DNA of 64,000 nucleotides, from positions 1-64,000 of the forward strand of contig JBEKFP010000003.1 of assembly GCA_050013255.1 (NCBI GenBank), given 5' to 3'. Under the pieces are notes generated by a model, which was not told the origin of the DNA, did not search any database, and saw nothing but the letters and a program-made list of their open reading frames with translations. A program made the position numbers and the translations under genes. Position 1 is the first letter of the stretch. Each line of letters opens with the position of its first letter. This DNA is from Candidatus Bathyarchaeia archaeon. Its GTDB lineage: Archaea; Thermoproteota; Bathyarchaeia; 40CM-2-53-6. Of the stretch, positions 28,072-47,695 are shown piece by piece.

Positions 28072-28266
28072 GCAAGGTCCCAGCCGGCGTACCCACTGCA
28101 CCGTATAAAATGGTTCCTTCGACCGGTTTGAACGGCTTAGCTCTGAACTCATTTGCCGTCTGGCTAGGGGCTGGTTTAACTCGCATTCAACCTTCGGGCG
28201 GAATGCCGCGAAGAGAAGCTTCAATAAGGCAAATTATACGGGCCAAGGAACGTTCTCGGAACAAGT

Positions 28267-28364
28267 GGGCCGGTAGTTCAGCCTGGTTAGAAGACTAACG
28301 GTCTGACCTGAACGTTGCCCTTACACGGCAAAGGTCGCCGGTTCAAATCCGGTCCGGCCCACCA
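28267..28364 (+). tRNA. tRNA-Val(TAC) with a 20-nt intron at position 22/23 (28291-28310) and encoded CCA
   Basis: Acceptor stem GGGCCGG/CCGGCCC-ACCA, anticodon arm TTGCC-CTTACAC-GGCAA, T-arm GCCGG-TTCAAAT-CCGGT; the intron forms a BHB-like motif (GGTT/GACC helix, AGA and TGA bulges, AGAC/GTCT stem). Confidence 0.93.
28335..28364 (+). repeat. attL (tRNA-side copy): TCGCCGGTTCAAATCCGGTCCGGCCCACCA
   Basis: Identical to 41754-41783. Confidence 0.95.
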
Positions 28365-28376
28365 TTTGACGAACCC

Positions 28377-29360
28377 GTGACCATCTCTAATCCTGCAGAA
28401 CCGGCGAGTTCCACTCCGCCACTTACGTGGCTCCGTTTCACCAAGTCTCCACTAAGTTCCGACTTGCCTTTGCCGTGTAAGGGCGAGATATTATCGCATG
28501 CGTTGTGGATGCAGAAAGAAGGTTACCGAGCTAGTACAATTGAATCAGCTATTAGCAGTTTGAAGTCTGTTAGTAGAAGGGCTAACCTCCTAGACCCTGA
28601 GCAAGTTAAGTCCTACTTAGGCAGAGCCAATTTAGCGGAAGGCAGGAAGGAAGCATTAACTGTAAGGCTTGCGAGATTCTACAAATATCAGGGTGTAACG
28701 TGGTCGCCGCCACGCTACAAGCGAATAGAAAAGTTGCCTTTCATTCCTCTTGAATCAGAGGTTGACCAACTAATTTCAGGCATGGGGAAGAAGCAGGCTT
28801 GCTTCCTACGACTGCTAAAGGAAACAGGAATGAGACCTGGAGAAGCGTGGCAACTACAGTGGAAAGACGTTGATACTGAAAGAGGATTCGTTAACGTAAC
28901 ACCTGAGAAGAACAGCAGCCCTAGACAGCTCAAATTATCTAACCAGAATATTGCCATGATTAACAGCCTGCCAAGGTTCGGGACATACATATTCCATAAG
29001 CCTAATGCAGACCAGCTAACGAGCCTGAGATATTTCCGTAGGGTATTCATTCGAAGAAGGAAGCGACTGGCAGCTAAGTTACAGAATCCAAGATTAGAGC
29101 AAATCGCATTCAAGACGCTAAGACATTTCAAAGCCACGACAGAATATCACAAGACCAAAGATATTCTACACGTAATGCAACTGCTGGGCCACAAGAACAT
29201 TCGAAATACCTTAGTCTACACCCACCTAGTCAATTGGGAATCAGACGAGTTCGTATCGAAAGTTGGAGCAAGCCAGAAGGAAATAACGGAATTGATTAAG
29301 TCAGGGTTCGACTTCATTCTTCAGAAGGACGGGTTAGCCTACTTTAGGAAGCGAAAGTAG
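28377..29360 (+). CDS. int: Tyrosine recombinase/integrase, int(C) part; the frame stays open back through the att core
   Basis: ETGMRPGEA (Arg), KTLRH, LLGHKNIRNTLVYTH (His, Tyr); starts 12 bp after the tRNA 3' end. Confidence 0.95.
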   Translation: MTISNPAEPASSTPPLTWLRFTKSPLSSDLPLPCKGEILSHALWMQKEGYRASTIESAISSLKSVSRRANLLDPEQVKSYLGRANLAEGRKEALTVRLARFYKYQGVTWSPPRYKRIEKLPFIPLESEVDQLISGMGKKQACFLRLLKETGMRPGEAWQLQWKDVDTERGFVNVTPEKNSSPRQLKLSNQNIAMINSLPRFGTYIFHKPNADQLTSLRYFRRVFIRRRKRLAAKLQNPRLEQIAFKTLRHFKATTEYHKTKDILHVMQLLGHKNIRNTLVYTHLVNWESDEFVSKVGASQKEITELIKSGFDFILQKDGLAYFRKRK

Positions 29361-30155
29361 CTAAGGCTGTTTCGTTCCGCAATGACGGCAGAACTTCCAG
29401 TCGGTTGGCAGTTCCTTGCCACAGTTTATGCAGAACGCCTCGTCTGAGGTTGCTTTCTTTGTCGTTGAATCAACTGTCTTTGCTACTGTGGTCTTGAGCT
29501 TCTTTCCTCGCCGTAAGTACATGATTAGGGCCCCTAACACGGCTAACGCGGCTATGATAGCGAAGGCTAACCATAGTTGCGGCGTATCGTAAGCTGGTTG
29601 TGAGGTGGTTGATATTGGAATCTGTGGGTTTGTTATTGATGTAACAGGCGTTGAAGCTTGCGATGTCGATTGCACTGTAATTGAGAAATCTTGAAAGGTG
29701 CTTGCGCCTGAAATAAGTTGGGCGTTGGAGTAGTACAATTCTACGGCAGCCCTCAATCTGTAAGTTTTAACTGAAGAGAATTGCAAATGGAACGTGACTA
29801 CGTCGGAACCAGAAGCTGACTTAGGGATGTAGCCACAGAGCGCCTCATTTGGATATATGTGACACGTATTCTGCGAGGATTGTGCAGTACCGGCCGCCCA
29901 CCAAGCATCCCTGTCGAAGATACCTACTGACACGGCATAACCGTTAGACCCGAGGTTGTACGTTGCTGCCACCACAACTGTCACATCTGTTCCAACCATC
30001 GCAGTTGATGGGGCTTGTAGGTTTGTTATAGAGGTTGTTTGCGCCCTTACTACCGGAACGGCGATTGTAGAGAAAGCAATTGCTAGAACGAATAGCCAAG
30101 ATACCTTCCTGAGTAGAGACATGGACCCTCGCCAACGGAACAGTAGTTTATCCAC
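29361..30155 (-). CDS. Secreted/membrane-anchored protein: signal peptide, beta domain, S/T linker, TM, zinc ribbon
   Basis: Hydrophobic N-terminus ending VRA, C-terminal TM, FCINCG...FCRHCG; ATG near 30122 is a likely start. Confidence 0.8.
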   Translation of the reverse strand: MDKLLFRWRGSMSLLRKVSWLFVLAIAFSTIAVPVVRAQTTSITNLQAPSTAMVGTDVTVVVAATYNLGSNGYAVSVGIFDRDAWWAAGTAQSSQNTCHIYPNEALCGYIPKSASGSDVVTFHLQFSSVKTYRLRAAVELYYSNAQLISGASTFQDFSITVQSTSQASTPVTSITNPQIPISTTSQPAYDTPQLWLAFAIIAALAVLGALIMYLRRGKKLKTTVAKTVDSTTKKATSDEAFCINCGKELPTDWKFCRHCGTKQP

Positions 30156-30341
30156 TTGTTAGCAGAAAACACTTGCGATGCCATAAGGACTACAAGGACT
30201 TTATTCTACGAAAGATAAGAGTACTGCAACGTTGTTTGTTGTATTTCCTTCTGTCGCCAATGTGGGGCAGAAGTTCCGGATACTGCAAGCTAACCAAGAC
30301 CGACCTCAGTAATGATTTGTCAACAAACTTTACCTCTGTGA

Positions 30342-31025
30342 GTGTTCTTTGGTGGTATTATGCCAATTAATTGGCTTCAGCATAAAGTCGCCGTAGGGAC
30401 CGTTCTTGCTCTAATAGTCGCATTCGCTGCAGGTATTGGTGTTTGGTCTTATGTTGGTCAAATGCGGCTCACGGTCTCAATGACTTCAACTGTATCGACG
30501 ACCCTTCCCATCGTAAGCATGAGCGTAACCACCAGCTTGACTACCACTACAGTCCCAGTGGGTCAGTGGGGCGGGCTAGATTTTACGCTGCCAATAGTGG
30601 GGCCTAACGGTTTGACCGGCCAGTCTATCTCCCTATCATCATTCCGTGGGAAAGTGATTCTTCTAGAGTTCATGGAACCGTGGGCTCCACACTGCCAACA
30701 TATGGCTCCGACTCTGCAGGATTTATACACCAAGTATGAAAACAACCCTAATGTTGTTTTCATATCGGTTGCCGGGCCATGGAATGGTCCAGATGGGAAC
30801 CCGGCGTCGGCCAATGACGCTGCAAAATTCATTAGCACCTATGGGTCAGCGTGGACGTATGTCTACGATTCCTCGGGCACTGTGATGAATACTCTGTATG
30901 GAGTTAATTCGACTCCGACCTTCTTCATCATCGGCAAGAGCGGTGTAGTTTTCACAACTTTTCAGGGCGAACAGGCCGAAGACACCATAGCCGCCGCCAT
31001 CAACAACGCTAGCAACGCCAGCTGA
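30342..31025 (+). CDS. Membrane-anchored TlpA/ResA-like thioredoxin-fold protein (AxxC active site)
   Basis: DFTL...ISLSSFRGKVILLEFM, WAPHC, YGVNSTPTFFII. Confidence 0.85.
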   Translation: MFFGGIMPINWLQHKVAVGTVLALIVAFAAGIGVWSYVGQMRLTVSMTSTVSTTLPIVSMSVTTSLTTTTVPVGQWGGLDFTLPIVGPNGLTGQSISLSSFRGKVILLEFMEPWAPHCQHMAPTLQDLYTKYENNPNVVFISVAGPWNGPDGNPASANDAAKFISTYGSAWTYVYDSSGTVMNTLYGVNSTPTFFIIGKSGVVFTTFQGEQAEDTIAAAINNASNAS

Positions 31026-31047
31026 GCCACTCAATACGATAAGTATC

Positions 31048-31230
31048 TCGGGCAGTGTAATGAATAGCGAGTACGGAGTTACGGCGACACCAACCGTCTT
31101 TATCATCGACAAGGACGGCGCCATCCTCACTTCATACCAGGGCGAAGAACCCTACGAGACCTTAGCGGCCTATCTCAGCGGCCTAGAGAAGTGGCACCGA
31201 AGCCAACGCCAAGAGACCGGCGAACCCTGA
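31048..31230 (+). pseudogene. C-terminal remnant of a second TlpA-like gene
   Basis: SGSVMNSEYGVTATPTVFIIDKDGAILTSYQGEEPYETLAA aligns with SGTVMNTLYGVNSTPTFFIIGKSGVVFTTFQGEQAEDTIAA of the upstream gene. Confidence 0.8.
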
Positions 31231-31456
31231 AGGGGATGTAACCTCGCCGTGTACTATGCGGAAGTTAGTCTGACGTGGCAAGGAATGCAATAGGTCATTC
31301 TCATAGTTGGTGAATGATGCTTATTCCAAGCTCTATTGATCGAGGCATATCGTGGCAGGTGAGGGACGAGTTTCCCTAACCTAGTGTCGTAGTCACTATC
31401 ACTATTATTCCCGCTAAACCTAAGTCCCTGACTAAAGTTACTAGGACAAGAATGTC

Positions 31457-32083
31457 TTGTCAGCACGGAAACGCCATAAGATTTACCCTCTTCTCTCAGC
31501 CATAATTGCTGTCCTTTTCTTATTAGGCGCCCTCTACGAGACCTTCTCTCCCGCCGTTCAAACGATTCAGATCACGGAGACCACTCATACCTTTCATCAA
31601 AAAGTAGGTCAGTATAACTATCCTACAATCGAAACCCAAGTTTTCCAAGGAAACACAACGCTCGTCAGTAATCTTACCCTCTGCTGCCAGACTTCACCAC
31701 AGGCTAATCCCCCAATTGTTTTCATTTTCACTGAGAGTGAATTCCAAGTTCTGCAGAATAATCAGAACAACCCCAATACCTCATACCCGGGGAGTAACCC
31801 ACATGAGGCATCAACTAGCCTAAGTAATTATACTTGGAATGGACCGACCAATAGCGAGACGATTTTCATAAGCTTCCATGTCAAAGAGACTTCCGACTAC
31901 TATTTCGTAGTTACGAACACACATGGGGAAAACTCGTTTACTCTATATCTAACGAACGAGGGAACAGAACCTGTTCTGGTTCACCCATACCAGTACCTTT
32001 TCCAAATCCTGACTCTAATCGCAAGCCTCGCAACAGTATGCTTAAACGTATACAGTTACCGACATGATGAGACGTCATCCTAG
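31457..32083 (+). CDS. Membrane protein with N- and C-terminal TM and an extracellular beta domain (GOLD-like?)
   Basis: Two terminal hydrophobic helices, SFHV..SDYYFVV strands, several N-x-S/T sequons. Confidence 0.7.
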   Translation: MSARKRHKIYPLLSAIIAVLFLLGALYETFSPAVQTIQITETTHTFHQKVGQYNYPTIETQVFQGNTTLVSNLTLCCQTSPQANPPIVFIFTESEFQVLQNNQNNPNTSYPGSNPHEASTSLSNYTWNGPTNSETIFISFHVKETSDYYFVVTNTHGENSFTLYLTNEGTEPVLVHPYQYLFQILTLIASLATVCLNVYSYRHDETSS

Positions 32084-32226
32084 AATATCCAACCTTCTTG
32101 AACTGCCTTAATCCGCACTCCTCAAGACTTTACCTAACCCATGACCGCCTCTATAATTTTCGAAGAGTTTAACCTAGTCAGTTTTGGTTACGACAACTCG
32201 CCATTGACCGCAGAGGCCACTGACAG

Positions 32227-32895
32227 TTATCTTCTAACCTTACCGAATTTAATGTAAACCAATAATCCAGCAACCGCTGCCGCCAAAACAGCGGCAACAA
32301 CCCAACCACTATAACTTTCGTAGAATGGTACTTCCATTACTGTTGTCATCGTAATACTCGATTCTGGATAGGCAGAAACTGATGATGATGTGTAACCTTG
32401 CGTGGTGGGTTGACTTGACATTGTTGTCGAAGCGGTCGAAGTGGCCTCTATAACTGAGATGGTGAATTTAGCTGAAGCATACGCAGTTGGGGTGTTGCCA
32501 GCAAACATCCATACTCCCACATTGAAGTCGTGTCTTCCCGTAGAGTTCATGCTGAAAGTGAAGCCGATGGTTTGCGTTCCTTCGCTCCAACTTCCATTAG
32601 TCTCACCTTGAAAAACACAGAAAGTTCTTCCGGCAAAAGGCCAGTATGTTAAGCAGTTAGTCAGCGAACCAACAGGGGATGTATTGGTTTTTGCGTCCGC
32701 AATCCACACCTGAACGGTTCCGCCGATGAAATAGTCAAGTGTCAGCCACACCGTTACCGGACTATTCAGAAGGGCTGTTGATGGGTAGGACATGTTTGTT
32801 ATCTTAATTTGCGGGTTCTGTGCATGCACAGGAAGCGTCAAGCTGAGTATTCCAACGGAAAGGAGTAGAGCAAGTAAGAAGGAGGATGTTTGCAA
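32227..32895 (-). CDS. Secreted/membrane-anchored protein, paralog of 29361-30155
   Basis: Signal peptide ending VHA; ITNMSYPSTA..PVTV vs ITNLQAPSTA..DVTV; Cys pair, S/T linker, C-terminal TM. Confidence 0.75.
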   Translation of the reverse strand: MQTSSFLLALLLSVGILSLTLPVHAQNPQIKITNMSYPSTALLNSPVTVWLTLDYFIGGTVQVWIADAKTNTSPVGSLTNCLTYWPFAGRTFCVFQGETNGSWSEGTQTIGFTFSMNSTGRHDFNVGVWMFAGNTPTAYASAKFTISVIEATSTASTTMSSQPTTQGYTSSSVSAYPESSITMTTVMEVPFYESYSGWVVAAVLAAAVAGLLVYIKFGKVRR

Positions 32896-33401
32896 GCTAA
32901 TTAACGACTCGAAACAGGTCGTCGAGAGTCATCTATTAAGACTTAGCATGACGTAAACCATAACCGGCAACTAGTAAAGAAAACGATGAAACGTTTCTTT
33001 AATGGCCGGTTTTGGTATCACTGGATTTAACCAGCCAACTATAATGCAATCGAGACTGCGAGCGTTTGGAATTAATTCTTTTCTATATGTGCTAATCATG
33101 CATTACTTGCAACCAGCGGCAATTAGCTTCATTCTTCTCTCCCTTGCCTACGATTCTACTTTCACAATTCACTGACCGTTAGACTACACTATCATGTCTG
33201 GTTATCTGTTTGCATGGTTCACGGCAAGAACCGTGAAAGAAATTGAAGTGTCCGATTTGTGACCTGGAACTTCTCGGCCAAGATAACTACCTGTTGAAAC
33301 GTTGCGACCGATGCAGCTTATGGTTTGAGTTGCAAGAGGACGGCAAGCTCATTCCCCTACGAGTTGAAAATCTAGCAAAATATCTCTAGAGCTGCTCCAA
33401 A

Positions 33402-33635
33402 ATGCACTTCGAGAACCAGTCCACTAAATGCCCCAAATGCAAGAATGACCTAACCTGGAAAAGCCACGAGAAAATCTGGACGAAGGAAAGAGAAGTTCAT
33501 CAGTTCACTTTTCGATGCAGTTCATGCAACCTAGGATATTTGTTCAAAGACGATAAAACCTTCGAGAAAATACTTATTTCGAAAGCCCCTGAACCTTTGC
33601 CAACGAAAACGCTAAGGGAGTATGCTAATGCTTAG
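33402..33635 (+). CDS. Small zinc-ribbon protein
   Basis: CPKC...CSSC. Confidence 0.65.
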   Translation: MHFENQSTKCPKCKNDLTWKSHEKIWTKEREVHQFTFRCSSCNLGYLFKDDKTFEKILISKAPEPLPTKTLREYANA

Positions 33636-33667
33636 TCTAGTGCTCATCTTTTGAGGGAATTGGTCAA

Positions 33668-34240
33668 TTGGTCAAACCGAAGCGTAAGAATGGTAGAGGA
33701 CGTAAGACGCTCTGGTACCGGATTACAAGTAATAGAACCCTGGGCGCTTTGACTCTGATGTGCACGGTCGCTCTAGGAATCGGAAACGTGTATCTTGGCT
33801 ATCAAACAAGTCAACTTGACAATCAACTGCACAACTATCCGACCAGAGTGTTCGGATTCGCAAACGAGTGGTTAGTTCTGAACACTGGCAAGCCTCTTCC
33901 AAACGGACACGGTAATGTGACAGTAGTCATCGTCAGCCCTGACGAGGGCTATTTCTCTCTAACGCGAGCTGGTTTCTACCCTAGCGACGCTGCCTTCCTC
34001 GACCGTCGGTTATTACAAAACGACGATGTTGAACTAATGGGAACTTACGTCTTTCCCGTCAAGTCTGGGGTCACGAGCACATCTGTCAATCTAAGCGTCT
34101 TTGGACGTGCCGCCGTGAACTCTACGTTCGCCCCCATTGGACACTTAGGCACACTTGTGCTAGAAATCACATTCCATGATGTTCAGAGGGATAGAGATTA
34201 TTCGAATTCAACATCTGTGGAGGTGCTGCTTGTGGGCTGA
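33668..34240 (+). CDS. Single-TM membrane-anchored hypothetical protein
   Basis: Basic N-terminus, one TM, beta-rich domain with sequons. Confidence 0.65.
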   Translation: MVKPKRKNGRGRKTLWYRITSNRTLGALTLMCTVALGIGNVYLGYQTSQLDNQLHNYPTRVFGFANEWLVLNTGKPLPNGHGNVTVVIVSPDEGYFSLTRAGFYPSDAAFLDRRLLQNDDVELMGTYVFPVKSGVTSTSVNLSVFGRAAVNSTFAPIGHLGTLVLEITFHDVQRDRDYSNSTSVEVLLVG

Positions 34241-34285
34241 TTAGGTTCTCCTTTCCACATATCGCTTGGCAATTCATTCGGAAGC

Positions 34286-35200
34286 CTACAAACATCCTCC
34301 TTCTGCAAAATGTTTTATTGCAAGTTCAAGGCACTTTTTCTCAAATTCAGCTTTCTCTTTTCCCTCAATTAACTTGTGCAGGAGTTGAGACTCATCGTTT
34401 GTAATCATACCCAACTTTGTTTCCATGAGAGTTAACAATTTAGGAAGTGAGAATCGGGGAGTGGCCGGGTCATCGTGGGGCAAACCCATGTACCAAAAGA
34501 GCATACCAGCGATTCTGTGCCTCACATCAGGGCTATCTTGCATATCGAGTCTGATAATCATCCCGAGTTGAAGTGACAAGTCAGGTGAGCGATTCAAATC
34601 AACTGAGACCATGAAATAGTCAATCAGTAGCCAAAACACCAATTGTCTGACGTATTTCCCAAAAAGATTCCATGGTTCACTTAGCAACAGACTCGCCTTC
34701 GATTCGGACACTTCACTAGTCCCGTTCAATGGCAAGTTTAGGGATTGGCGCAACTGTTTGGAGCCGTAGAGTGTTACTCCTACCGGGCCCGGCGGCGGCA
34801 TATACTCAAACAATGGGTCAAGCTCATCGCCAACTTCACGATGAGTAAAAGCCTCTAGCTGTTTGTCGATGGGCGCGCGAATGTCTCTAGGCAGGGAATC
34901 GGCAAATCTTGGCTCGATTGTGGAACGCAATAGGACGTCCTTGTAAGCGACCAAATCGTTATCATGAATCTGGGTCATTACCAGGCGTCCCTTCGGAGTA
35001 ACTCGATATTGCCCGGTAGGAGTCTTCTTGACAAGGCCAGAATGCCTAAGCTTCCTAAGAAATTCACAGAGAGAAGGGTCAGAGAGGCTTTTTTCCTTGG
35101 GCTTTCTGGCTTTTTCTTTAAGTTGAGTATAACGTAACTCTGAGTTCTCTTCCAAAGCTTCTAAGATACGTCGCATCCCTCGACTGATTTTCAACTTCAT
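34286..35200 (-). CDS. Winged-HTH transcriptional regulator (candidate repressor of the element)
   Basis: ILEALEENSELRYTQLKE...SL..FLRKLRHSGLVKKTPTGQYRVTPKG wHTH; divergent from the 35289 operon. Confidence 0.8.
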   Translation of the reverse strand: MKLKISRGMRRILEALEENSELRYTQLKEKARKPKEKSLSDPSLCEFLRKLRHSGLVKKTPTGQYRVTPKGRLVMTQIHDNDLVAYKDVLLRSTIEPRFADSLPRDIRAPIDKQLEAFTHREVGDELDPLFEYMPPPGPVGVTLYGSKQLRQSLNLPLNGTSEVSESKASLLLSEPWNLFGKYVRQLVFWLLIDYFMVSVDLNRSPDLSLQLGMIIRLDMQDSPDVRHRIAGMLFWYMGLPHDDPATPRFSLPKLLTLMETKLGMITNDESQLLHKLIEGKEKAEFEKKCLELAIKHFAEGGCL

Positions 35201-35226
35201 GCTCTCAACGCAACTTGCTTAGGTTT

Positions 35227-35245
35227 ACTTAGGTAATGGCTAAGT
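35227..35245. promoter_or_regulatory. Palindromic operator candidate ACTTAG-N7-CTAAGT in a divergent promoter region
   Basis: Perfect 6-bp inverted repeat plus a CTTAGGT direct repeat (35218, 35228) within an 88-bp intergenic gap. Confidence 0.45.
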
Positions 35246-35288
35246 TAAATGGCTTCTATAATGGTATTTCTGGTAGGAGAGTAAACAT

Positions 35289-35549
35289 ATGAAGAATGAT
35301 AGGACACTGTTCTTGACTGTCAAAGCCAAAGGCCGACTAGAAGCTGTCGATAGGTTTCTGGATATTCTAGAGCAGCTTCCCAACGTAGAATTGCACGGCG
35401 ACTACAAGCGGATAAGAGCCGATGACACTAAGGGCGTGAATTACCACACTTTGGTTAACGTCCTCATCAGGGATGGGCGCTCTCCACCCTCTTCTTTGAC
35501 GATAACACGGCTGTTGCCAGAAACGAACCCGCATTATGGGAGTAGGTGA
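35289..35549 (+). CDS. Small hypothetical protein
   Basis: ATG preceded by AGGAGAG; first gene of the divergent operon. Confidence 0.6.
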   Translation: MKNDRTLFLTVKAKGRLEAVDRFLDILEQLPNVELHGDYKRIRADDTKGVNYHTLVNVLIRDGRSPPSSLTITRLLPETNPHYGSR

Positions 35550-35560
35550 CAAAATAGATT

Positions 35561-36331
35561 ATGACGACTGAAGAAGAAGCTAGAAAATATTCTACGGACA
35601 GGGACACGGAGAAAATTCTGGAATTAGCTAAGGCTCATGGCATTTCAGCCGCTGAATTCTTCCGTAGTTATGAGGCGCTTGTTGAGCGGGGGAACATACC
35701 TGCGGATGCAGGTGCTATGCCTCAACACATCGAAGAGTCAGAGTGGAAGCAAATTATCGATGAAGTCAGAAGAACCAGTAATGAGAACTTAATGAGTGCT
35801 ATCGATGATAGTGTGCACCAAAAACAGCTTACACAGGACCTTGAACCAAGAAGCGGTCAAACGAGGGCCGTAGGTAGAGCTGCAAGTGACGGCGACCGCT
35901 ATCCGGGATTAGCTAAACAATATCCTACCGGTGTCGGTTCAGGTTATCAAGCCGAAGAACCCGGAGCAGGAGGACAGAAAGTTCCACCGGGGCAAGAGGG
36001 AGGAACTTCACCTATGCCCGATGTGGACCGAAGCACCGGTGGCAGAACCGGATGCATGTATTTCAGTTTTGAATCAGAAGAAGACTTCAACAAATGGAAG
36101 TCCATGAACTCGAACCTCCCAATTCAAAGTCAATTTTGGGACACTCGGACGCACCGCTTGGTTGCTAAAGTTTCCATTAACGACTTGGATAACGGAGTCA
36201 TCAATAATTATCAAGGCTACATGGCAGACGTGCGTACCCCAATAGGCACTGAACCTGAAGACTTTCCATCAGACAAGTATACGGGTCGGAAAGCTGCCCG
36301 AACAGCAACAGAGAAGCACTTCAAAGACTGA
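35561..36331 (+). CDS. Hypothetical acidic protein with a disordered G/P-rich middle
   Basis: 256-aa ORF, AGGTGA RBS, operon spacing. Confidence 0.7.
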   Translation: MTTEEEARKYSTDRDTEKILELAKAHGISAAEFFRSYEALVERGNIPADAGAMPQHIEESEWKQIIDEVRRTSNENLMSAIDDSVHQKQLTQDLEPRSGQTRAVGRAASDGDRYPGLAKQYPTGVGSGYQAEEPGAGGQKVPPGQEGGTSPMPDVDRSTGGRTGCMYFSFESEEDFNKWKSMNSNLPIQSQFWDTRTHRLVAKVSINDLDNGVINNYQGYMADVRTPIGTEPEDFPSDKYTGRKAARTATEKHFKD

Positions 36332-36355
36332 GCAAGCTAACCTAGGCCAACATAG

Positions 36356-37534
36356 TTGGCTACGCCACCCCTTCCCTATCTCTTGTTTCCTGAACTAACG
36401 GACGCTAACGAACGAATTGGAAGTGAAAGAAGAATGACATACAAAGTAGGCATGAGTAATCTGGTTACGCAATGGTTCTGTAGACGTTGCGCCAAATCTC
36501 TCTTTGCCCCAGAGATTGTCACGACTCATGATGCTATTAGCGGAGTACGAAAATGGTGTGGGGTTTGCCATGCTGAATTGGTTAAGAACAAATACTATTC
36601 AGACGAATCGAAAACGCTTAGGCATTGGCAGCCGCAGGCAGCATCCGTTCCTGAGAGGTCGGATTCTGTCCCCATACAACATGTTGACCGAGTGAAGGGA
36701 TTCAGATGGGAAGACCATGAAGGAAAGACAGTTAATCGCATGCTTAACGGACTCAGTGAACAGCAACAAAGCAGGATTAGACGGGAATTAGGAATTCCGG
36801 AAGACATGCCTTTACTGAAACATAATCCTAGAACCCATTTCCACATCCCGGACTATGAAAGCGGATACTTCGCATGGGATAGTAAGGTTCGTTCAGGTCA
36901 ACTTTGGAGGCAGGACGCCCACCGCACAGCAACTAAATTCCAAAGCACCCACACGAAAAGAGCCGTCAGCTCACCCATACCGTTACAGTTACAGGAAGAA
37001 AGCATGGTTGAATGGACCAAATTGGGCATAGAAAACCTACCTTTACTCGGAATAATGAACGTCTACCGTGATAAAGCCGGAGTTCCCCCCATTACGTCTT
37101 GTGACTGTGTGGGTGTAGATGCTTCTTTCTGTGCTTCTACGTCTTACGGGGTACCTTACGGTAATAGCCCTAACGAGTTGAACTATCCTGTTAGGGAGGA
37201 TTATGACAGTATAGAATATTGTTTGCCGCCTAAGCCTCCAAGTGAGGAATTTTTACGGTCAATCCATGAGTATGATTTGAGATTGCAATTTGAGGAAGCT
37301 GTTTTAGAAGATTATGAGTATGCGGAAGGAAGAATTTGTTCATGCCTACGTTCAAGCTCTTTGCGGGTACGGGAACTTCCTACAGGTAGTTCCTTTACTA
37401 GTGCTGGGCTCCGGACCTGTCCGTGTTCGTCGCTGGGCACGGATAAGAAGAGAAAGCGTCCGGTTCCACGGAGAAATCCAACATCATTTGGATTCGGGAC
37501 GGTCAACCTTCCCAGCACTCCAAATTACTATTGA
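36356..37534 (+). CDS. Hypothetical protein with N-terminal CxxC...CxxC zinc finger
   Basis: FCRRC...WCGVC; long ORF in operon. Confidence 0.65.
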   Translation: MATPPLPYLLFPELTDANERIGSERRMTYKVGMSNLVTQWFCRRCAKSLFAPEIVTTHDAISGVRKWCGVCHAELVKNKYYSDESKTLRHWQPQAASVPERSDSVPIQHVDRVKGFRWEDHEGKTVNRMLNGLSEQQQSRIRRELGIPEDMPLLKHNPRTHFHIPDYESGYFAWDSKVRSGQLWRQDAHRTATKFQSTHTKRAVSSPIPLQLQEESMVEWTKLGIENLPLLGIMNVYRDKAGVPPITSCDCVGVDASFCASTSYGVPYGNSPNELNYPVREDYDSIEYCLPPKPPSEEFLRSIHEYDLRLQFEEAVLEDYEYAEGRICSCLRSSSLRVRELPTGSSFTSAGLRTCPCSSLGTDKKRKRPVPRRNPTSFGFGTVNLPSTPNYY

Positions 37535-37907
37535 TGGATGATTTTGATATTGTCGAATAATCGGAGACAATCAACGACGGTAGGATTTTGCTCTCTATCA
37601 TTCTATTCTAGTTGCAAGCTGTTTTTCTTTAGAGGGTTACGGCCTGCGGCTGGTTGGCCTGTCATGCTGCTTGTGGGTGAATCGTTACGTTGCTGAAGGT
37701 GTCGGTACGGCTGATTCGTTACGATTCAAGCACAACGCATCGGGCACTTGTTCATAAGGCAATTTTCGTTGCGATTCCCATTAGATGGTCACAAAGTGCA
37801 TGTTAGATGGTTTTCCCTGTTTCCTCTTTTCTTCCGTCCTCCATGCCTGCTAGTGGGGTTCATCATAACAGGTTAGTTTACTGGTTTGTAATGGGGGTGA
37901 ATTTGTT

Positions 37908-38456
37908 ATGAGTGAAAATAATAGCGCAGCTACTAGTGGTGAATGGCCTGAACTGTTAACGGCCTACATGCGGATTCAGGAACATTGCAGACGTGACCCT
38001 GAGAACTTCAAGCTAATTCGGGTTAACGTAACGTTACCGGACGGTGCCAGCAAGGAAGTGGAATTCATTGTGCCCGTTGACTATTATCCGGGTACTTCAA
38101 GTATTGACGTGGGTTTCTTTGGTCGAGCCGCAGCCGGGGCCGCATGCATGAACGAAGGCCGTTGGGACGTGTTCGCTCATGAGGTCCGAACCTACGTTCA
38201 AGTTAACAGACTTGACGATGACAATGAGGAACCATCTAAGAATTCCTCTAAATCGGTTAGTGCCTACGTTAAGCCTGCTAAACTCCTGAAGCGATTTGAG
38301 TCCAAGGCCAGTTTGAAGGGTGGTTCATATCGCATGCAACTGCCCCGGAAGCTTGTCCGATATCTACAGCTTAATCATGGCATGCCCATTAGTGAAGAGT
38401 ACAAGGTTACATTCACAGTTTACAGCAACAAAACAATCAAGGCCTCCGTTAGTTAG
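37908..38456 (+). CDS. Hypothetical protein with C-terminal AbrB/MazE-like swapped-hairpin domain
   Basis: KGGSYRMQLPRKLVRYLQL..G...YKVTF resembles AbrB; GGGGGTGA RBS. Confidence 0.55.
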   Translation: MSENNSAATSGEWPELLTAYMRIQEHCRRDPENFKLIRVNVTLPDGASKEVEFIVPVDYYPGTSSIDVGFFGRAAAGAACMNEGRWDVFAHEVRTYVQVNRLDDDNEEPSKNSSKSVSAYVKPAKLLKRFESKASLKGGSYRMQLPRKLVRYLQLNHGMPISEEYKVTFTVYSNKTIKASVS

Positions 38457-38530
38457 CTCGACTTTCCTAAGAAAGAGAGGGAAATGGGCGGCGATTCGCT
38501 ATTTGGTTAGCTTTCGCTACCCATCATATG

Positions 38531-39073
38531 TCATAGCGTCGTCTGCACTGTAAGTTTCTGTATTGCCCTCTTAGCTGCAGTACGTGATGTGGTTGTGAGC
38601 CACCAGTGGTAACTCCCACTTGCGATGTCGTAGATGGGCAACCCGTTGTGGCCCGCTCCGGCAAGAGCCTTAACAATTGAATTGAAAAAGTTGCGCTCCT
38701 CCATGTTCCTCTTCACATCGAGTTCACTTAGGTTCGTTCGTCCGAGTAGTGATTTTGCCTTGTCATCAGACTGTGCTAGTTCCTGGACAATTGCAGCGTC
38801 GTATAGATACTGGTCTTTCTTGTACGGAGTGCTTGGCTTTCCTGTAACCTTTCTGACTACCCAAATCGCTCTTCGGAGCGTCTGGGTAGTTCCGACTAGT
38901 CCTGCCTTTGCAAGACGCTTGAGCGTTTCTATGGCCGTCTTTGTATGTAGGTGGCTTTCATCGGCAACTAACTTAGTTGGCTTCTTACGCTTACGGTCAA
39001 AAGCTTGCAGAGAGAACAATGCCCGAACGACAGCTGAATAAGCTGCAATTGGTAACGTTTTGCTCACGCTCAT
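38531..39073 (-). CDS. HTH-containing DNA-binding protein
   Basis: PTKLVADESHLHTKTAIETLKRLAKAGLV HTH-like; GGAGGTGA RBS. Confidence 0.65.
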   Translation of the reverse strand: MSVSKTLPIAAYSAVVRALFSLQAFDRKRKKPTKLVADESHLHTKTAIETLKRLAKAGLVGTTQTLRRAIWVVRKVTGKPSTPYKKDQYLYDAAIVQELAQSDDKAKSLLGRTNLSELDVKRNMEERNFFNSIVKALAGAGHNGLPIYDIASGSYHWWLTTTSRTAAKRAIQKLTVQTTL

Positions 39074-39646
39074 ATCTCACCTCCATGATGGCCTCGGCCG
39101 GATGAAAGTCAAAGCGTTAAATAGACAGACATCATCAAAGGAAAAGATGTCAGTCCGAAGGGGAGCTCTCTTAGGGGCCGCTTAAACCACCTTCGAGAGT
39201 TCTCCTTCCACGACGCTTCTACTATCATTCGCCTAGAGTCTTAACCAATCACCTTGAAGTCCTCGCATTTCATCCTTTGCTCCTCTTAGAAAGTGGAAGC
39301 TCTTGTTAGTAGCCTTGATGCACTTTAATAGTTTTCGACAGAATTGTATAAAATATTATTCTTTATTGTGCCGAGATTCACCGCAGTTTCAAAGTTCTTT
39401 TACGAATTTCGACCAGAATTCGAGCGATGACTCGGCAGCCCATCAACGAAGTTTGATATCTTGATATACGAATTCCTTAGACGGGCTCGGTAGTTCGGTA
39501 GTCGCCACCGACAATTCTGCGAAGAAAAGCCGAAATGAAAGGTGAGTCGATATCTTCAGTTGATTGGTTTTGGTTTGAAAGCACATGCCGTGTTTTTATC
39601 GCAAAGGCGCACTAGATTGTACATTCTTTGTTGAGCGTGAAAGCGA

Positions 39647-40543
39647 TTGGCTCAGGAAGCAGTGACGATACTACAATTCTTGGCGTATCTTGCAATTGGC
39701 TTAATCTCAGTAACAATTCCTACTTACGCTATATCCATTACATATCTCGGACGAGAAACAGAAGGGACGCTAAAAGAGCTTGAACGAAGAAGAGGACGTT
39801 TTTCCGACAAGCTCGACGAGCTGAGAAACCGAATTCAACATGAAACAAGTACCACGGCCATTCAAGCGCTCAAAGAAGAGATATCACTATTCGAGAAAGA
39901 GGAGGAAAGGCTCAAGAACAGACTCTTTTTCCTTTCGGCTAAAGGAGCAGTATTCTTTCCAGTCGTATTTTACATCATGTCGCTGGGTGCGTCCTTGTAC
40001 GGAATTGTGTATGCGACTAATGAGCAGGTCTTTCCCACCTTACTCGGCGCAGCATTTTCTCTATTTGTGGGGTTAGCGCTGTTATGGGGCACTTTGCATG
40101 GGGTGGAGGAAGCTGCTCTTAGACCTGAGGATAAGTTGCTGCCAGCGTTCACGGTAACCTTCATTGACGGAACCACGACCTGCAGTTTTCCCGCCGATAC
40201 CCTTCAAATTTTTCAGATACTGGTAAGGAATAACGGCGAGGTTATGGCCAAGTGCGTAGAGGCTCTCATAGCCTTTCCTCCAGACTTTGAAGTTCCATCC
40301 GTTAGCCAACCTGAGGCCAGACTTAGCACTCAACCAGCTGATAGAGTCATTCACGGTATATCGACAAGGGGGTATGATACCCTTTGGGTAAAACTCAACG
40401 AAATCCATTCAACTATCATGAAATCAATCCCACTTTCGGATGTGAAAATTCCAGCGAGACAAGGAGCGTACAAAATACCAGTTCTCATTTTCTCAGAGCA
40501 GACAAAACCGTCAGAGCACGTATTGACAATCGAAGCAAATTGA
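39647..40543 (+). CDS. Membrane protein: TM, coiled coil, 2 TM, C-terminal Ig-like domain
   Basis: Hydropathy pattern; ILVRNNGEVMA strand motif. Confidence 0.7.
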   Translation: MAQEAVTILQFLAYLAIGLISVTIPTYAISITYLGRETEGTLKELERRRGRFSDKLDELRNRIQHETSTTAIQALKEEISLFEKEEERLKNRLFFLSAKGAVFFPVVFYIMSLGASLYGIVYATNEQVFPTLLGAAFSLFVGLALLWGTLHGVEEAALRPEDKLLPAFTVTFIDGTTTCSFPADTLQIFQILVRNNGEVMAKCVEALIAFPPDFEVPSVSQPEARLSTQPADRVIHGISTRGYDTLWVKLNEIHSTIMKSIPLSDVKIPARQGAYKIPVLIFSEQTKPSEHVLTIEAN

Positions 40544-40627
40544 GATGGAAGTCAATGGGTGGGATTTTCAGAAAATGAATGGGCCTATGATGAGTCTCGT
40601 TACTAGATTCCCCTAAGACGCCTGACG

Positions 40628-40688
40628 TGCTACAGGTGTAGCAAATCTTAATACGCAACTCTTAACTATATTCTGCTACAGGTGTAGC
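40628..40688. promoter_or_regulatory. Two copies of the palindrome TGCTACA-GG-TGTAGC(A) flanking a TATA-like promoter
   Basis: Copies at 40628-40643 and 40674-40688; AT-rich spacer containing TTAACTATA about 25 bp before TTG 40691. Confidence 0.75.
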
Positions 40689-40690
40689 GA

Positions 40691-40933
40691 TTGGGGTTAG
40701 CTAACGTGGTCTATGTAGTTGACTATGATATTCCTACATCTAATCCAACTAGGCGGGTTGACTTCTACCGTAAGGTTCACAGACTTCTAGGAGAACATTA
40801 TGGCAAAGAAGTGAAATTCTCCACTCAATCATGTTACTTTACAGAGGACGAGGCATTAGCCAAAAAATTCTTAGAGTTAGCAGGTCACTATAGTAAGAGA
40901 TGTAACCTCTACAAGGCGGTGAAGATGCAATGA
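40691..40933 (+). CDS. Stand-alone Cas2/VapD-like protein (80 aa)
   Basis: YVVDYDIP...RR..FYRKVHRLL...G...TQSCY matches the Cas2 pattern (hhhYDI, RR.K...L..G, Q.S.F); no cas1 or CRISPR array in the window. Confidence 0.7.
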   Translation: MGLANVVYVVDYDIPTSNPTRRVDFYRKVHRLLGEHYGKEVKFSTQSCYFTEDEALAKKFLELAGHYSKRCNLYKAVKMQ

Positions 40934-41595
40934 AGAATATTGGAATTCTCTTAATCATCGTATCTCTCGCGAGTCTTGGAGGCTTGGAGTATCCTACGGT
41001 TCCTATCAATCGAACGTCCACTTCGACCCAGTATCGGTTAACAAGCCTACTGGTTCAGAGCACTGAGACAGTTGATGTAATGCAGGGTTCCGTCACGTTG
41101 AAGCTTTGCTTCCTCGCCGTGACGAACTACTTCACGGCTAATGCAGGCGACATTTTCATTATTACTTCGCCTCCACCTGGTGTGACCGTCGGAGTTCTCG
41201 ACCTGGGTGTCGGAGAAGTAATTCATGAGGCATTCCTTATGGCAAAGACGTACGACGATTATCAACTCGAATGTGGTGTAGCTTATGGACTAAGAGGGGC
41301 CGTAGTGAACAATACGTGGACGGCTACATACAGTAGCGTTTACTACCTTGTTTTCTTTCAGCCCCCTGATTCGCCGTCGATGCCTAACATCGAGTTTATT
41401 CTATCAAAAATAACGGTATCTGCGAATTCGTTGGCGACCACTCTGCCTTACAGCACTACTGTGACTAATCCCACAAAAATTCCGTATGCGACCTCAGGAA
41501 TAAGCGGCATAATGAGCTTGCTCTTGGTTGCCGCATTGTTCCTAGCAGGAGTTGGCTTGTTATTTAGAGCAAGAAAGATATCTACAAAGTTGTGA
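40930..41595 (+). CDS. Repeat-bounded membrane protein (N- and C-terminal TM, extracellular beta domain)
   Basis: ATG lies in repeat 1 and TGA in repeat 2; hydropathy pattern. Confidence 0.75.
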   Translation: MKNIGILLIIVSLASLGGLEYPTVPINRTSTSTQYRLTSLLVQSTETVDVMQGSVTLKLCFLAVTNYFTANAGDIFIITSPPPGVTVGVLDLGVGEVIHEAFLMAKTYDDYQLECGVAYGLRGAVVNNTWTATYSSVYYLVFFQPPDSPSMPNIEFILSKITVSANSLATTLPYSTTVTNPTKIPYATSGISGIMSLLLVAALFLAGVGLLFRARKISTKL

Positions 41596-41602
41596 AGATG
41601 CA

Positions 41603-41722
41603 ATGACAGATGGCAAAAACGTCCCGCAGGGGCGTCCGAAGGACGTTTCAGTTAAGGGGGTTCAACTTACCCCTAGACCTCATTACATAGTCCACACTAT
41701 CTCCAAGATGGTTAGGCTGTGA
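41603..41722 (+). CDS. 39-aa repeat-bounded ORF (MTDGKNVPQGRPKDVSVKGVQLTPRPHYIVHTISKMVRL)
   Basis: ATG in repeat 2, TGA in repeat 3, no internal stop; below the ORF-track cut-off. Confidence 0.45.
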   Translation: MTDGKNVPQGRPKDVSVKGVQLTPRPHYIVHTISKMVRL

Positions 41723-41729
41723 AGGTGCA

Positions 41730-41783
41730 ATGACCGAAAATAATTCTGGAAAATCGCCGGTTCAAATCCGGTCCGGCCCACCA
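41730..41783 (+). other. int(N): 5' fragment of the integrase gene (MTENNSGK-SPVQIRSGPP) running into attR
   Basis: ATG 41730 is in frame with the 30-bp att core and, after circularisation, with TTTGACGAACCCGTG at 28365 (the integrase frame). Confidence 0.7.
41754..41783 (+). repeat. attR: copy of the tRNA-Val 3' 30 bp
   Basis: Identical to 28335-28364. Confidence 0.95.
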
Positions 41784-41788
41784 CTAAA

Positions 41789-43525
41789 CTACTCGGGCGG
41801 AATTTCTGAGAAAATCTGTGCATAGTCAACTTGTTTCTTTCGTGGTCCCCACTTGTAGTAGGTGTAGATCGCTGCTCCGATCAGGACGAATAGAAGATTG
41901 AATCCTAAGGCTAGCCAGTTGTAATAACCTGGAGCTAGCATATTGTCGTCAAAGATCGAGGTAAGGACCTCCCACCCGATGACCAAATTAGCCACGAGAC
42001 CCGCGAGGCCAATTGCTGCAACCCCAAGTTTCCCGCCTGGTTTGAAATATGCACTATCATAGAAGCGCCGTTGTCTGAACGGGAAGAGTAGGACTGCAAA
42101 CGAAAAGAGGCTGAGAAAAATCACAGTTAGAAGGTCTACGTAGGTGACGCCATACGAAAAGAAGGCGTCCATGATAGAACCTATGAGCCCGCCTGGGTTC
42201 CAACTGCCGCCAAGGGCAGCGACGCAAACTCCTCCACAACCTAACCCTGCTAATCCGCCAAGAATCGCGACGAGGACGACTGCGACAAAGGGAACGTGGA
42301 ATCTGTTAAGCTTGGCGAAAGTCTCAGGGAGGACTCTGTCGAATGACATGGCGAAAATCAGTCTTGAACCGGCCAACATCAATGCTGGAATTTCGTTAGC
42401 CGCCAACAGTAAGGGAAATAGGAACAAGATGACATTGAACGAGCCTAGTCCCAAGCCTTGAGCACTCATCATGGCCAATATTTGAACAAACATCCGGATT
42501 GGAGGAAGATGCGCCTGTGTGAGGCTCGTCGAAAATGTGAGGAAAGAGTAGGCTCCAAGGAAGCTCCACCTATCACCGTTGGGCAATATCGTTTGCCCTA
42601 CCGATGCAGCGGCGTCAGCTGAGATCCACGCCACGCCTACGAGAACCACGATAGCGACGAGCGCGCCGATTATTAGAACCTTAGGGAGATTCCTCTTAGG
42701 ATCCTTCACTTCTCCTAGAACAAATGTGGTTGAGGCGACTGCACCCCAGACAAGGAAAAAGCCAAAGTAAGACCAGACTGCCCAAATGAAACTGGCTGAA
42801 ACCGCTGTCCAATAGTCTCCGACGTTTGCTGAGTCAAGCCCCTGAGCGAGAGCAGCTTTTACGTATGTGTCTGCGGTCACTCCGGGTACTCCTTGTGTCT
42901 GCGCCCACATTGAAATTCCTCGCTCTAGCACGGCAGGGTTCATTATTGTGATGGCGAACAAACATAGAACGTAAGCAGTAATTATGACAGAAACCCAGAA
43001 GAGTACTTGCATCAAATACCCCGATACTCTCGTGCCAAACGCCGAGATCACTGCAAAAACGACTATGAGTATTAATCCGCCGACGGTTGGGTCGACGTCG
43101 TTAAGAATCGGACTTGCCGGGAAATAGAAATGCTGAGCGAGGCTCACGGCAATTGCGCCTAAATAGAAAGAAATCGTTAGGAATACAAGCCAACCCGCGA
43201 TGAAGCCCATGAATGGGTTGATAATCCTTGAAATCGCAAGATATCCTCCGCCAGATCGAGGCATTGCGCTACCTAAGATCGAATACCCAACCACCATTGA
43301 TAAGGCCAGAATTCCCACTATGATGAGGGCCATCACGGAAGGTGGAATTCCAGCGAACCATAAGTTCTCAGGCAAGGGGATGTTGCCCGTAGCAGAGAAG
43401 CCTCTCGCGAACGGCCAGAAGGCCCAACCCGTAACTGCGAGAATAATTACGACTGCAGTTAACGGACCAATTTCTCTAACTAGTCCCGTAGTTTCTCTTA
43501 CAAACGACTTCTTTCCATCAAGCAA
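41789..43525 (-). CDS. APC-family amino acid permease
   Basis: FVRETTGLVRE, AMPRSGGGY, GEVKDP, SRLIFAMSFDR, FSEIPPE. Confidence 0.9.
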   Translation of the reverse strand: MLDGKKSFVRETTGLVREIGPLTAVVIILAVTGWAFWPFARGFSATGNIPLPENLWFAGIPPSVMALIIVGILALSMVVGYSILGSAMPRSGGGYLAISRIINPFMGFIAGWLVFLTISFYLGAIAVSLAQHFYFPASPILNDVDPTVGGLILIVVFAVISAFGTRVSGYLMQVLFWVSVIITAYVLCLFAITIMNPAVLERGISMWAQTQGVPGVTADTYVKAALAQGLDSANVGDYWTAVSASFIWAVWSYFGFFLVWGAVASTTFVLGEVKDPKRNLPKVLIIGALVAIVVLVGVAWISADAAASVGQTILPNGDRWSFLGAYSFLTFSTSLTQAHLPPIRMFVQILAMMSAQGLGLGSFNVILFLFPLLLAANEIPALMLAGSRLIFAMSFDRVLPETFAKLNRFHVPFVAVVLVAILGGLAGLGCGGVCVAALGGSWNPGGLIGSIMDAFFSYGVTYVDLLTVIFLSLFSFAVLLFPFRQRRFYDSAYFKPGGKLGVAAIGLAGLVANLVIGWEVLTSIFDDNMLAPGYYNWLALGFNLLFVLIGAAIYTYYKWGPRKKQVDYAQIFSEIPPE

Positions 43526-47592: not shown

Positions 47593-47609
47593 TCCGGTCC
47601 GGCTCACCA
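47593..47609 (+). repeat. Degenerate third att copy (16/17 match to the tRNA-Val 3' end)
   Basis: TCCGGTCCGGCTCACCA; similarity to the attR region continues downstream (CTGAACTAGTCGGGCGGAATTTC vs CTAAACTACTCGGGCGGAATTTC). Confidence 0.75.
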
Positions 47610-47614
47610 CTGAA

Positions 47615-47695
47615 CTAGTCGGGCGGAATTTCCGACGAGCTCCGTGTGTAGCTATTTTGTCTTCCCGAAGGACCTCATCTAGAATATACGTAGAT
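47615..47695 (-). pseudogene. 3' remnant of an APC permease
   Basis: IYVYSR*GPSGRQNSYTRSSEIPPD* vs IYTYYKWGPRKKQVDYAQIFSEIPPE* of 41789-43525; the Trp codon has become TGA. Confidence 0.75.

Follow-up and report, generated by a model that had tools for sequence, protein, structure and literature searches.

We analysed a 64,000-nucleotide stretch of contig JBEKFP010000003.1 from a Candidatus Bathyarchaeia archaeon (assembly GCA_050013255.1), hereafter called the window, in which a gene for a Cas2-like protein (cas2-like) and the start of a tyrosine integrase gene (int) are separated by open reading frames (ORFs) bounded by copies of a short junction repeat (J). This repeat train lies at the right-hand end of an integrated element of 13.4 kb (28365-41783) whose target was a tRNA gene, and the features mapped below at the two ends of the element lie on the plus strand. 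The train is preceded by a promoter region (40628-40688), in which a TATA-like stretch rich in A/T is enclosed by a 15-nt palindrome (40628-40642) and its identical copy (40674-40688), the latter stopping 2 nt ahead of the cas2-like start codon. The cas2-like gene (40691-40933; 80 amino acids) is the first gene of the operon and starts with TTG, where its relatives have ATG. It is followed by a cargo ORF of 221 amino acids (40930-41595), an ORF of 39 amino acids (41603-41722), and int(N) (41730-41783), which comprises 18 codons including the 30-nt core of the right attachment site, attR (41754-41783). The 221-aa product has an N-terminal signal or transmembrane segment, a variable ectodomain, and a C-terminal transmembrane anchor. 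At the opposite end, an intron-bearing tRNA gene (28267-28364; ARAGORN, and Rfam tRNA at 61 bits) holds the left core, attL, in its last 30 nt (28335-28364) and is followed by int(C) (28365-29360), the C-terminal 331 codons of the integrase. The two cores form an exact direct repeat of 30 nt that bounds the 13.4-kb insert. No recognisable replication or virion genes were found in the rest of the element using Pfam and PHROGs.

Each copy of J corresponds to the 3′ end of the cas2-like gene. The 15-nt word GTGAAGATGCAATGA occurs exactly at 40919-40933 and 41592-41606 and with one mismatch at 41719-41733, whereas three matches were obtained in 0/100 dinucleotide shuffles (mean 0.19); the recurrence of the cas2-like 3′ end twice downstream, as described in an initial annotation of this DNA, was thus upheld. 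The similarity extends in the 5′ direction beyond this word. Copy 1 (J-left, 40908-40933) consists of the last cas2-like codons and an ATGA stop/start overlap, copy 2 (41578-41606) is a 29-nt remnant of the cas2-like 3′ end (24/29 identical), and copy 3 (41714-41733) matches copy 1 at 18/20 nt. Just upstream of copy 3, the cas2-tail remnant contains an insertion of 8 nt that is also present in a related element, L094. The two intervening ORFs run from repeat to repeat, and the ATG of the third repeat (41730) starts the integrase, both as the annotation had it; from this ATG the frame continues across attR and on into int(C) at 28365. Its statement that each copy provides the stop codon of the upstream ORF held in the expected form for copy 1 only, whose terminal TGA lies in ATGA; the 221-aa and 39-aa ORFs end at the TGA within the GTGA that opens copies 2 and 3, respectively, with the following ATG 8 nt further on.

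The degenerate J word had no further occurrence in the three-contig assembly of 2,459,603 bases. This result, which answers the check that the annotation had set for itself, indicates that J is not a genome-wide ribosome-binding motif. A position-weight scan of 273 kb of related loci placed all extra J copies within 1.3 kb downstream of a cas2-like gene, with 1 reverse-strand match as the control. J read directly in 11 elements had no dyad symmetry, hairpin, or inverted-repeat partner.

The integrase of the window element is an SSV-type split tyrosine integrase, with the repeat train at its int(N) end, since the attachment site lies inside int, the frame is open across it, and the two parts stand at opposite ends of the element. 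The int(C) frame, which is open from the base directly following attL, matches PF00589 (Pfam Phage_integrase; 6.4e-20, residues 131-288), and the R, H, R, H, and Y positions show no variation among 32 homologs. When the element is integrated, the int(N) ORF extends to 41825. Joining the sequence from the ATG at 41730 through attR to 28365 onward in silico gave a single open integrase frame of 349 amino acids. The same joining test gave open integrases of 325-337 amino acids in four further distinct elements of 5.4-6.2 kb (L004, L034, L053/54, and L088/89), so that the joined frame was open in five distinct elements, with lengths of 325-349 amino acids.

Several further observations concern the integrase and its site. 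The integrase family comprises 2286 clusters. Most database homologs of the integrase are called from the equivalent of an internal Met at 28509, as proteins of 283 amino acids; this form would survive integration intact, and the equivalent of Met 28509 is not conserved in L004. Two integrases of the same family are encoded elsewhere in the genome (G000 C3:131106-132083 and C2:259100-259975; 38% and 48% identity), the latter adjoining a tRNA-Arg gene. The genome contains a single cas2-like gene, which therefore marks only part of this integrase family. A decayed copy of the 3′ part of the attachment site with host flank (47593-47660, 78% over 68 nt) sits 5826 bp downstream of attR and indicates an earlier event at this tRNA hotspot. 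In sequencing run X21, one contig joins 28354 to 41764 and skips 13,409 bp, with a shorter side of only 20 nt; this joint is possibly the empty site. A contig of run X8 (depth 20.7) skips 1029 bp within 39547-40577, with 14 other letters between the two sides. The skip removes a 298-aa ORF upstream of the promoter and reflects either a population variant or a relative without this gene.

The 80-aa protein had 82 clusters of homologs, nearly all from peat, wetland, or sediment metagenomes and metagenome-assembled genomes of Bathyarchaeia, and a search of 22 genomes from other species of the genus found cas2-like in 11. We fetched more than 90 loci, and the junction counts given here use 62 non-redundant junctions. 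The cas2-like gene ends in an ATGA overlap with the next ORF at 55/62 junctions. This ORF typically starts with M-T-E/D and reads 17-100 codons into a tRNA fragment; these fragments lie on either strand and derive from many different tRNAs. A strict T-arm followed 24-101 nt downstream at 30/62 junctions, a pattern that we used because ARAGORN with introns was unreliable for the tRNAs on the attachment side of the loci. These results indicate that the order promoter, cas2-like, ATGA overlap, int, which the annotation had taken to be ancestral, is the norm of the family. The stop/start overlap, or a spacing of a few nucleotides, is conserved across the relatives, and all cargo and int(N) starts lie within J copies. 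We infer from this arrangement that cas2-like and int form a translationally coupled operon, in which termination at ATGA would be followed by re-initiation in vivo. The only genes common to these elements are cas2-like and int. All sampled cas2-like copies were integrated, and no relative was found among IMG/VR viral contigs.

Right-end remnants, consisting of the promoter, cas2-like, int(N), and attachment site with or without cargo, were observed in L005 (5001-5350) and L112 (10001-10930). Both adjoin tRNA genes; the remainder of the element is gone, and host genes lie immediately upstream. In a separate subclade (L106 159-740, L057 1601-2095, L022, and L058), the ORF that overlaps the cas2-like stop codon starts with a CcdA-like ribbon-helix-helix (RHH) domain (PF07362, 30 bits against a 22.4-bit cut-off), which replaces the usual int(N). 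L107, which also has a CcdA-like ORF after cas2-like, was dropped as a truncated remnant.

One or two ORFs lay between cas2-like and int(N) at 10/62 junctions, which corresponds to about one element in six; L110, in which the upstream gene is cut by the contig end, is an eleventh cargo element. The cargo comprised 221 amino acids in the window (and L109), 316 and 91 in L004, 99 in L113 and L114, 160 in L112, 164 in L111, 166 in L110, 129 in L060, 96 in L061, 63 in L072, 68 in L028, and 163 in L094. L109 departs from the window at a contig end, inside the 221-aa ORF near its 3′ end, possibly as an assembly artefact, and was left unused. Every cargo ORF starts at the ATG of the overlap (12/12), every one encodes at least two hydrophobic segments (12/12; range 2 to 5), and the lengths range from 63 to 316 amino acids. 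The ORFs are mutually unrelated except for those of the window, L111, and L110, which occupy the same slot and are homologous at their N- and C-termini only. Each cargo ORF is followed by an 8-33-nt remnant of the cas2-like 3′ end, and the last 4-6 residues of the Cas2-like protein form an in-frame extension of the cargo in L004, L111, L113, L112, and L061. Variable ORFs bracketed by junction copies, as the annotation had anticipated, were therefore found in 10-11 independent elements, the closest relatives included, with different cargo in each. The cargo layout has no gaps, only stop/start overlaps or an 8-nt spacing, and is compatible with promoterless cassettes behind one upstream promoter; the sequencing runs found were all of DNA. 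The cargo probably serves a surface or exclusion function. Homologs of the L112 cargo (35-38% identity) occur just past int(N)/attR in L065 (4041-4493) and L008 (5579-5872, minus strand), and may represent what is left of earlier elements at these hotspots.

In regards to the 39-aa ORF, the sequence at 41621-41663 is identical at 37/42 nt to the J, int(N), and tRNA sequence of L050 (score 54 against 14.5 ± 2.2 for shuffles), and the corresponding sequence of L031 aligns similarly to this region. The T-arm and acceptor that would follow the matching part are decayed. Judging from these alignments, the ORF is the fossil of an older integrase module that was directed at another tRNA, composed of an int(N′) start and the decayed 3′ half of a different tRNA (old attP′). 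Its interpretation as a second cargo cassette was accordingly rejected.

Comparison of close relatives revealed extensive mosaicism at the joint. The three closest relatives of the window's cas2-like gene (96, 94, and 91% identity) belong to elements that differ in both cargo and int(N)/tRNA target. L060 and L061 are 90% identical in cas2-like and 90% in int(N) and carry unrelated cargo, whereas L113 and L064 are 95% identical in int(N) yet only 71% in cas2-like. Because both cargo and integrase modules have been exchanged among close relatives, the joint is a mosaic breakpoint for both. Elements with cargo are scattered among empty ones over the cas2-like identity range from 96% to 53%. We classified a downstream copy (J-right) as foreign-like where the J-left of most other elements matched it equally well or better than its own J-left; this was the case in L111, L061, L028, L094, and L113 (5/10 elements; 6/13 J-right copies tested), and the J-right of L111 was identical at 18/18 nt to the J-left of another element. 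L094, which has backbone genes in common with the window element, contains a decayed int(N) of the window type at the position that the fossil occupies in the window. The annotation had proposed that insertion of cargo duplicated the junction. A foreign J-right, frequently nearer to the cas2-like tails of other elements, together with a variable remnant length of 8-33 nt, argues against the duplication of a fixed target and for recombination between elements that brings in pieces of cas2-like.

The Cas2-like protein itself had no match in Pfam, NCBIfam, or PHROGs. Its AlphaFold model (pLDDT 87) has the order beta-alpha-beta-alpha-beta, and D13 is nearly invariant among the homologs. Cas2 and VapD dominated the top of the Foldseek list, with E values of at least 0.04 and TM-scores of 0.4-0.5, and PADLOC matched residues 7-55 to Cas2b (E 3.9e-4) and Cas2d (E 1e-3). 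The best PDB match of the family profile was the Cas2 protein TT1823 (E 0.054), with the strand-1 Asp motif aligned; this PDB Cas2 match was lost with a broader profile, A3. Alignment to 12 canonical Bathyarchaeial Cas2 sequences using hhalign gave P 0.005 in the same register, with a probability of only 7%, and PF09827 was touched below threshold by 2/82 distant relatives. An exhaustive structural search using VIA-align retrieved generic ferredoxin-like folds only (Z ≤ 6.4). Feature and shape searches of the ESM Atlas retrieved unnamed clusters together with an AsnC-type regulator, PaaX_M, SPOR, SatD, DUF3303, and ChrB (TM 0.55-0.64), and 26% of the members of the PaaX_M cluster carry the Cas2 Pfam family. 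The Cas2/ferredoxin fold expected in the annotation is thus weakly favoured by the secondary-structure order, which is also that of VapD and PaaX_M, and by the leading Foldseek matches, and is left less certain by their E values and by the generic folds. Taken together, sequence and model comparisons suggest that the protein is probably a remote member of the Cas2/VapD superfamily. Its N-terminal Y-D-I-P strand with the Asp, the R-R helix start, and the S-x-(V/C)-(F/Y) strand align to Cas2; it differs from Cas2 in that its gene sits in an integrase operon behind a pair of palindromic operators. The genome contains no canonical Cas2 (PF09827), no CRISPR array, and no Cas1, and no Cas1-like ORF was found among the element ORFs scanned. 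With no Cas1 in the element and a repeat of no fixed length, the suggestion of a Cas1-Cas2-like partnership built on the integrase was abandoned. A complex prediction for Int(C) and the Cas2-like protein gave a score of 0.00, which speaks neither for nor against binding.

The palindrome pair with its TATA-like stretch is kept in nearly all relatives (palindromes of 14-15 nt, within the 130 nt upstream of cas2-like in about 60 loci), and the half-sites co-vary with the cas2-like clades (GCTACA.., GTTACA.., CTTACA.., and GTACA..). The palindromes are intact in the right-end remnants without int(C), L005 and L112. As only cas2-like and int are shared by the elements, and as the palindromes persist where int(C) is gone, the Cas2-like protein is a candidate autoregulator that may bind the palindromes.

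We consider it reasonably probable that this coupled operon contains, at its conserved joint, a recombination-prone cargo slot at which modules are shuffled under selection for coupling. A single operator-controlled, probably leaderless or near-leaderless transcript, predicted to start at about 40691 in the window, would carry cas2-like, zero to two cargo ORFs, and int, joined by stop/start overlaps. The last 7 or so cas2-like codons would serve as the ribosome-binding or re-initiation signal and, with the ATGA overlap, as the start of the integrase, J holding both GGTGA and the ATG for the following ORF. Because J would be conserved by coding and coupling constraints, it would be the one stretch of homology common to otherwise diverse elements. 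Co-resident relatives may recombine at or near J by homologous or microhomology-mediated exchange, including the formation of cointegrates followed by deletion, and such exchange would swap integrase/attachment modules and bring in small membrane-protein ORFs. The survivors would keep a J-like tail upstream of every next start, because int and cargo would otherwise be untranslated, and the outcome of exchange and selection would resemble a cassette train. The fossil in the window could have arisen by the same route. Two relatives would have recombined in their cas2-like homology to form a cointegrate with two integrases, which would then have integrated via one of them; a deletion that began immediately beyond the unused attP and ended at the second cas2-like gene's tail would leave J, the int(N′) fossil, the cas2 tail, J, and int(N). 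After integration, int is cut, and the promoter, cas2-like, and cargo stay intact, reading outward to attR. The slot would therefore be a place for the expression of cargo from the resident element.

Several results weigh against this interpretation. No cointegrate, J-J deletion, or circle was observed. The match of GGTGA to the anti-Shine-Dalgarno sequence is one that we presume from general archaeal knowledge; the 3′ end of the 16S rRNA was not found in the assembly, and Shine-Dalgarno-like motifs are rare before the long ORFs of this genome (39/1410). The unit swapped between L060 and L061 is bounded by little beyond the last 6-8 nt of J, which is short for RadA-type homologous recombination. 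Random deletion or illegitimate joining would not be expected to place the cargo start exactly at the overlap ATG in every case; such precision calls for a defined crossover point or for strong selection on coupling. The same exactness supports an explanation that we regard as unlikely, in which J is a true recombination site at which the integrase, the Cas2-like protein, or both capture and excise an ORF together with its 3′ J in a site-specific manner. A cassette's own 3′ J that differs in type from the resident J-left (L111, L061, and L028), the difference between the close relatives L060 and L061 by the cassette alone, the two-unit array of L004, and a slot that adjoins a tyrosine recombinase gene behind one promoter also agree with such capture. 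However, J is 8-33 nt of ordinary coding sequence, and its constancy while the integrases differ in tRNA target, together with the lack of dyad symmetry, argues against J as the integrase core site. The integrase scored 64.5 bits against the 265-bit cut-off of the integron-integrase model TIGR02249 and 43 against 435 for NF011946. One of the apparent cassettes of the window is a decayed int(N′)/att′ fossil, whose presence is accounted for by inter-element recombination but not by capture. Contigs of four public runs over 27800-42300 contained no J-to-J skip or circle, a weak negative since contigs drop rare forms.

A single ancient origin is likewise improbable. It supposes that one duplication of the joint bracketed one membrane-protein gene and that the present cargo arose by fast divergence and internal replacement, with empty elements produced by J × J deletion and two-unit arrays by unequal crossing-over. 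The common cargo architecture, in which a hydrophobic segment at the N-terminus is usually accompanied by a C-terminal anchor bearing a basic tail, would fit this history, as would the family of the window, L111, and L110, in which only the termini are kept and the middle is replaced; loss would be easy with direct repeats. It is difficult to reconcile, however, with the absence of detectable similarity between cargo families that differ so widely in length and in number of hydrophobic segments, with the scatter of cargo elements among empty ones, and with J-right types that are often foreign to the resident cas2-like gene. ATGA overlaps and Shine-Dalgarno-like GGTGA are common in compact archaeal operons and could in principle have produced the repeats by chance or convergence on ribosome-binding and stop/start motifs, without shared descent. 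The probability of this is negligible: the 15/15 identity with flanking similarity, the uniqueness of J in the genome, the lineage-specific J variants repeated within L004 and L060, and the confinement of extra copies to the region downstream of cas2-like all contradict it, and we ruled it out on the shuffle test, the genome uniqueness, and the 273-kb scan.

These results describe a widespread family of small (5-13 kb), tRNA-integrating Bathyarchaeia elements from peat and wetland sediments, whose hallmark is a conserved operator pair followed by a Cas2-like gene that is coupled to an SSV-type integrase. The slot is a real and recurrent accessory-gene hotspot in this new family of archaeal integrative elements, and no description of the cas2-like/int family or its cargo slot was found in the literature searched. 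Shuffling at the joint, if our preferred interpretation holds, would provide a concrete route by which compact archaeal elements acquire and swap accessory membrane proteins and integrase specificities at one stop/start joint. As the slot stays intact when int is split, it is a natural site for genes expressed by the resident element, such as those for exclusion or surface changes. The family also offers a testable case of short coding junctions acting as recombination linkers and of a role for a Cas2-fold protein outside CRISPR. Site-specific capture, were it true, would make these elements an integron-like platform for gene acquisition built from unrelated parts.

Conserved boundary or linker sequences have been proposed for modular exchange in lambdoid phages and fuselloviruses, and phage morons are accessory genes that bring their own promoter and terminator. 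As in the phage linkers, short conserved gene-boundary sequences coincide here with mosaic breakpoints, and, as in morons, accessory genes lie between two conserved genes and are probably expressed from the resident element. In contrast to morons, the cargo would need upstream expression by stop/start coupling, and the boundary is duplicated around the inserts. A Cas2 homolog is known from a Bathyarchaeia virus, which is filamentous and has mini-CRISPR arrays and hence represents a different setting (PMC10848311). Integrons have been reported in Archaea (bioRxiv 10.1101/2022.02.06.479319). Like integrons, the present elements have apparently promoterless ORFs behind one promoter beside a tyrosine recombinase gene, with a 3′ repeat for each unit and a content that varies between close relatives. 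Unlike integrons, they lack IntI, and int is the last gene, co-directional in the same operon rather than divergent, with at most two units. Sites of the attC type, defined as imperfect inverted repeats of 57-141 bp at the 3′ end of a cassette, were not found in 11 elements, where the repeat is a fragment of the cas2-like coding tail. The integron-like unit named in the annotation was therefore not sustained, the resemblance being one of function only. The SNJ2 integrase is described as co-transcribed with the small helpers Orf2 and Orf3 (Wang et al. 2018; PMC8371274); the present integrase likewise shares an operon with a small protein, and the gene order, folds, and integrase family differ, the helper role of the Cas2-like protein being putative. 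The closest correspondence is to the SSV-type (type I, or suicidal) archaeal tyrosine integrases, such as those of SSV1 and pT26-2, in which attP lies inside int and integration into a tRNA gene splits it (PMC7253208, PMC8371274). The descriptions in these two sources include no such upstream partner or slot. The present integrases are split into int(N) and int(C) in the same manner, in frame in five elements, and are distinguished from the SSV type by an int(N) of 17-100 codons, by probable coupling to a Cas2-like gene, and by a joint that can hold cargo.

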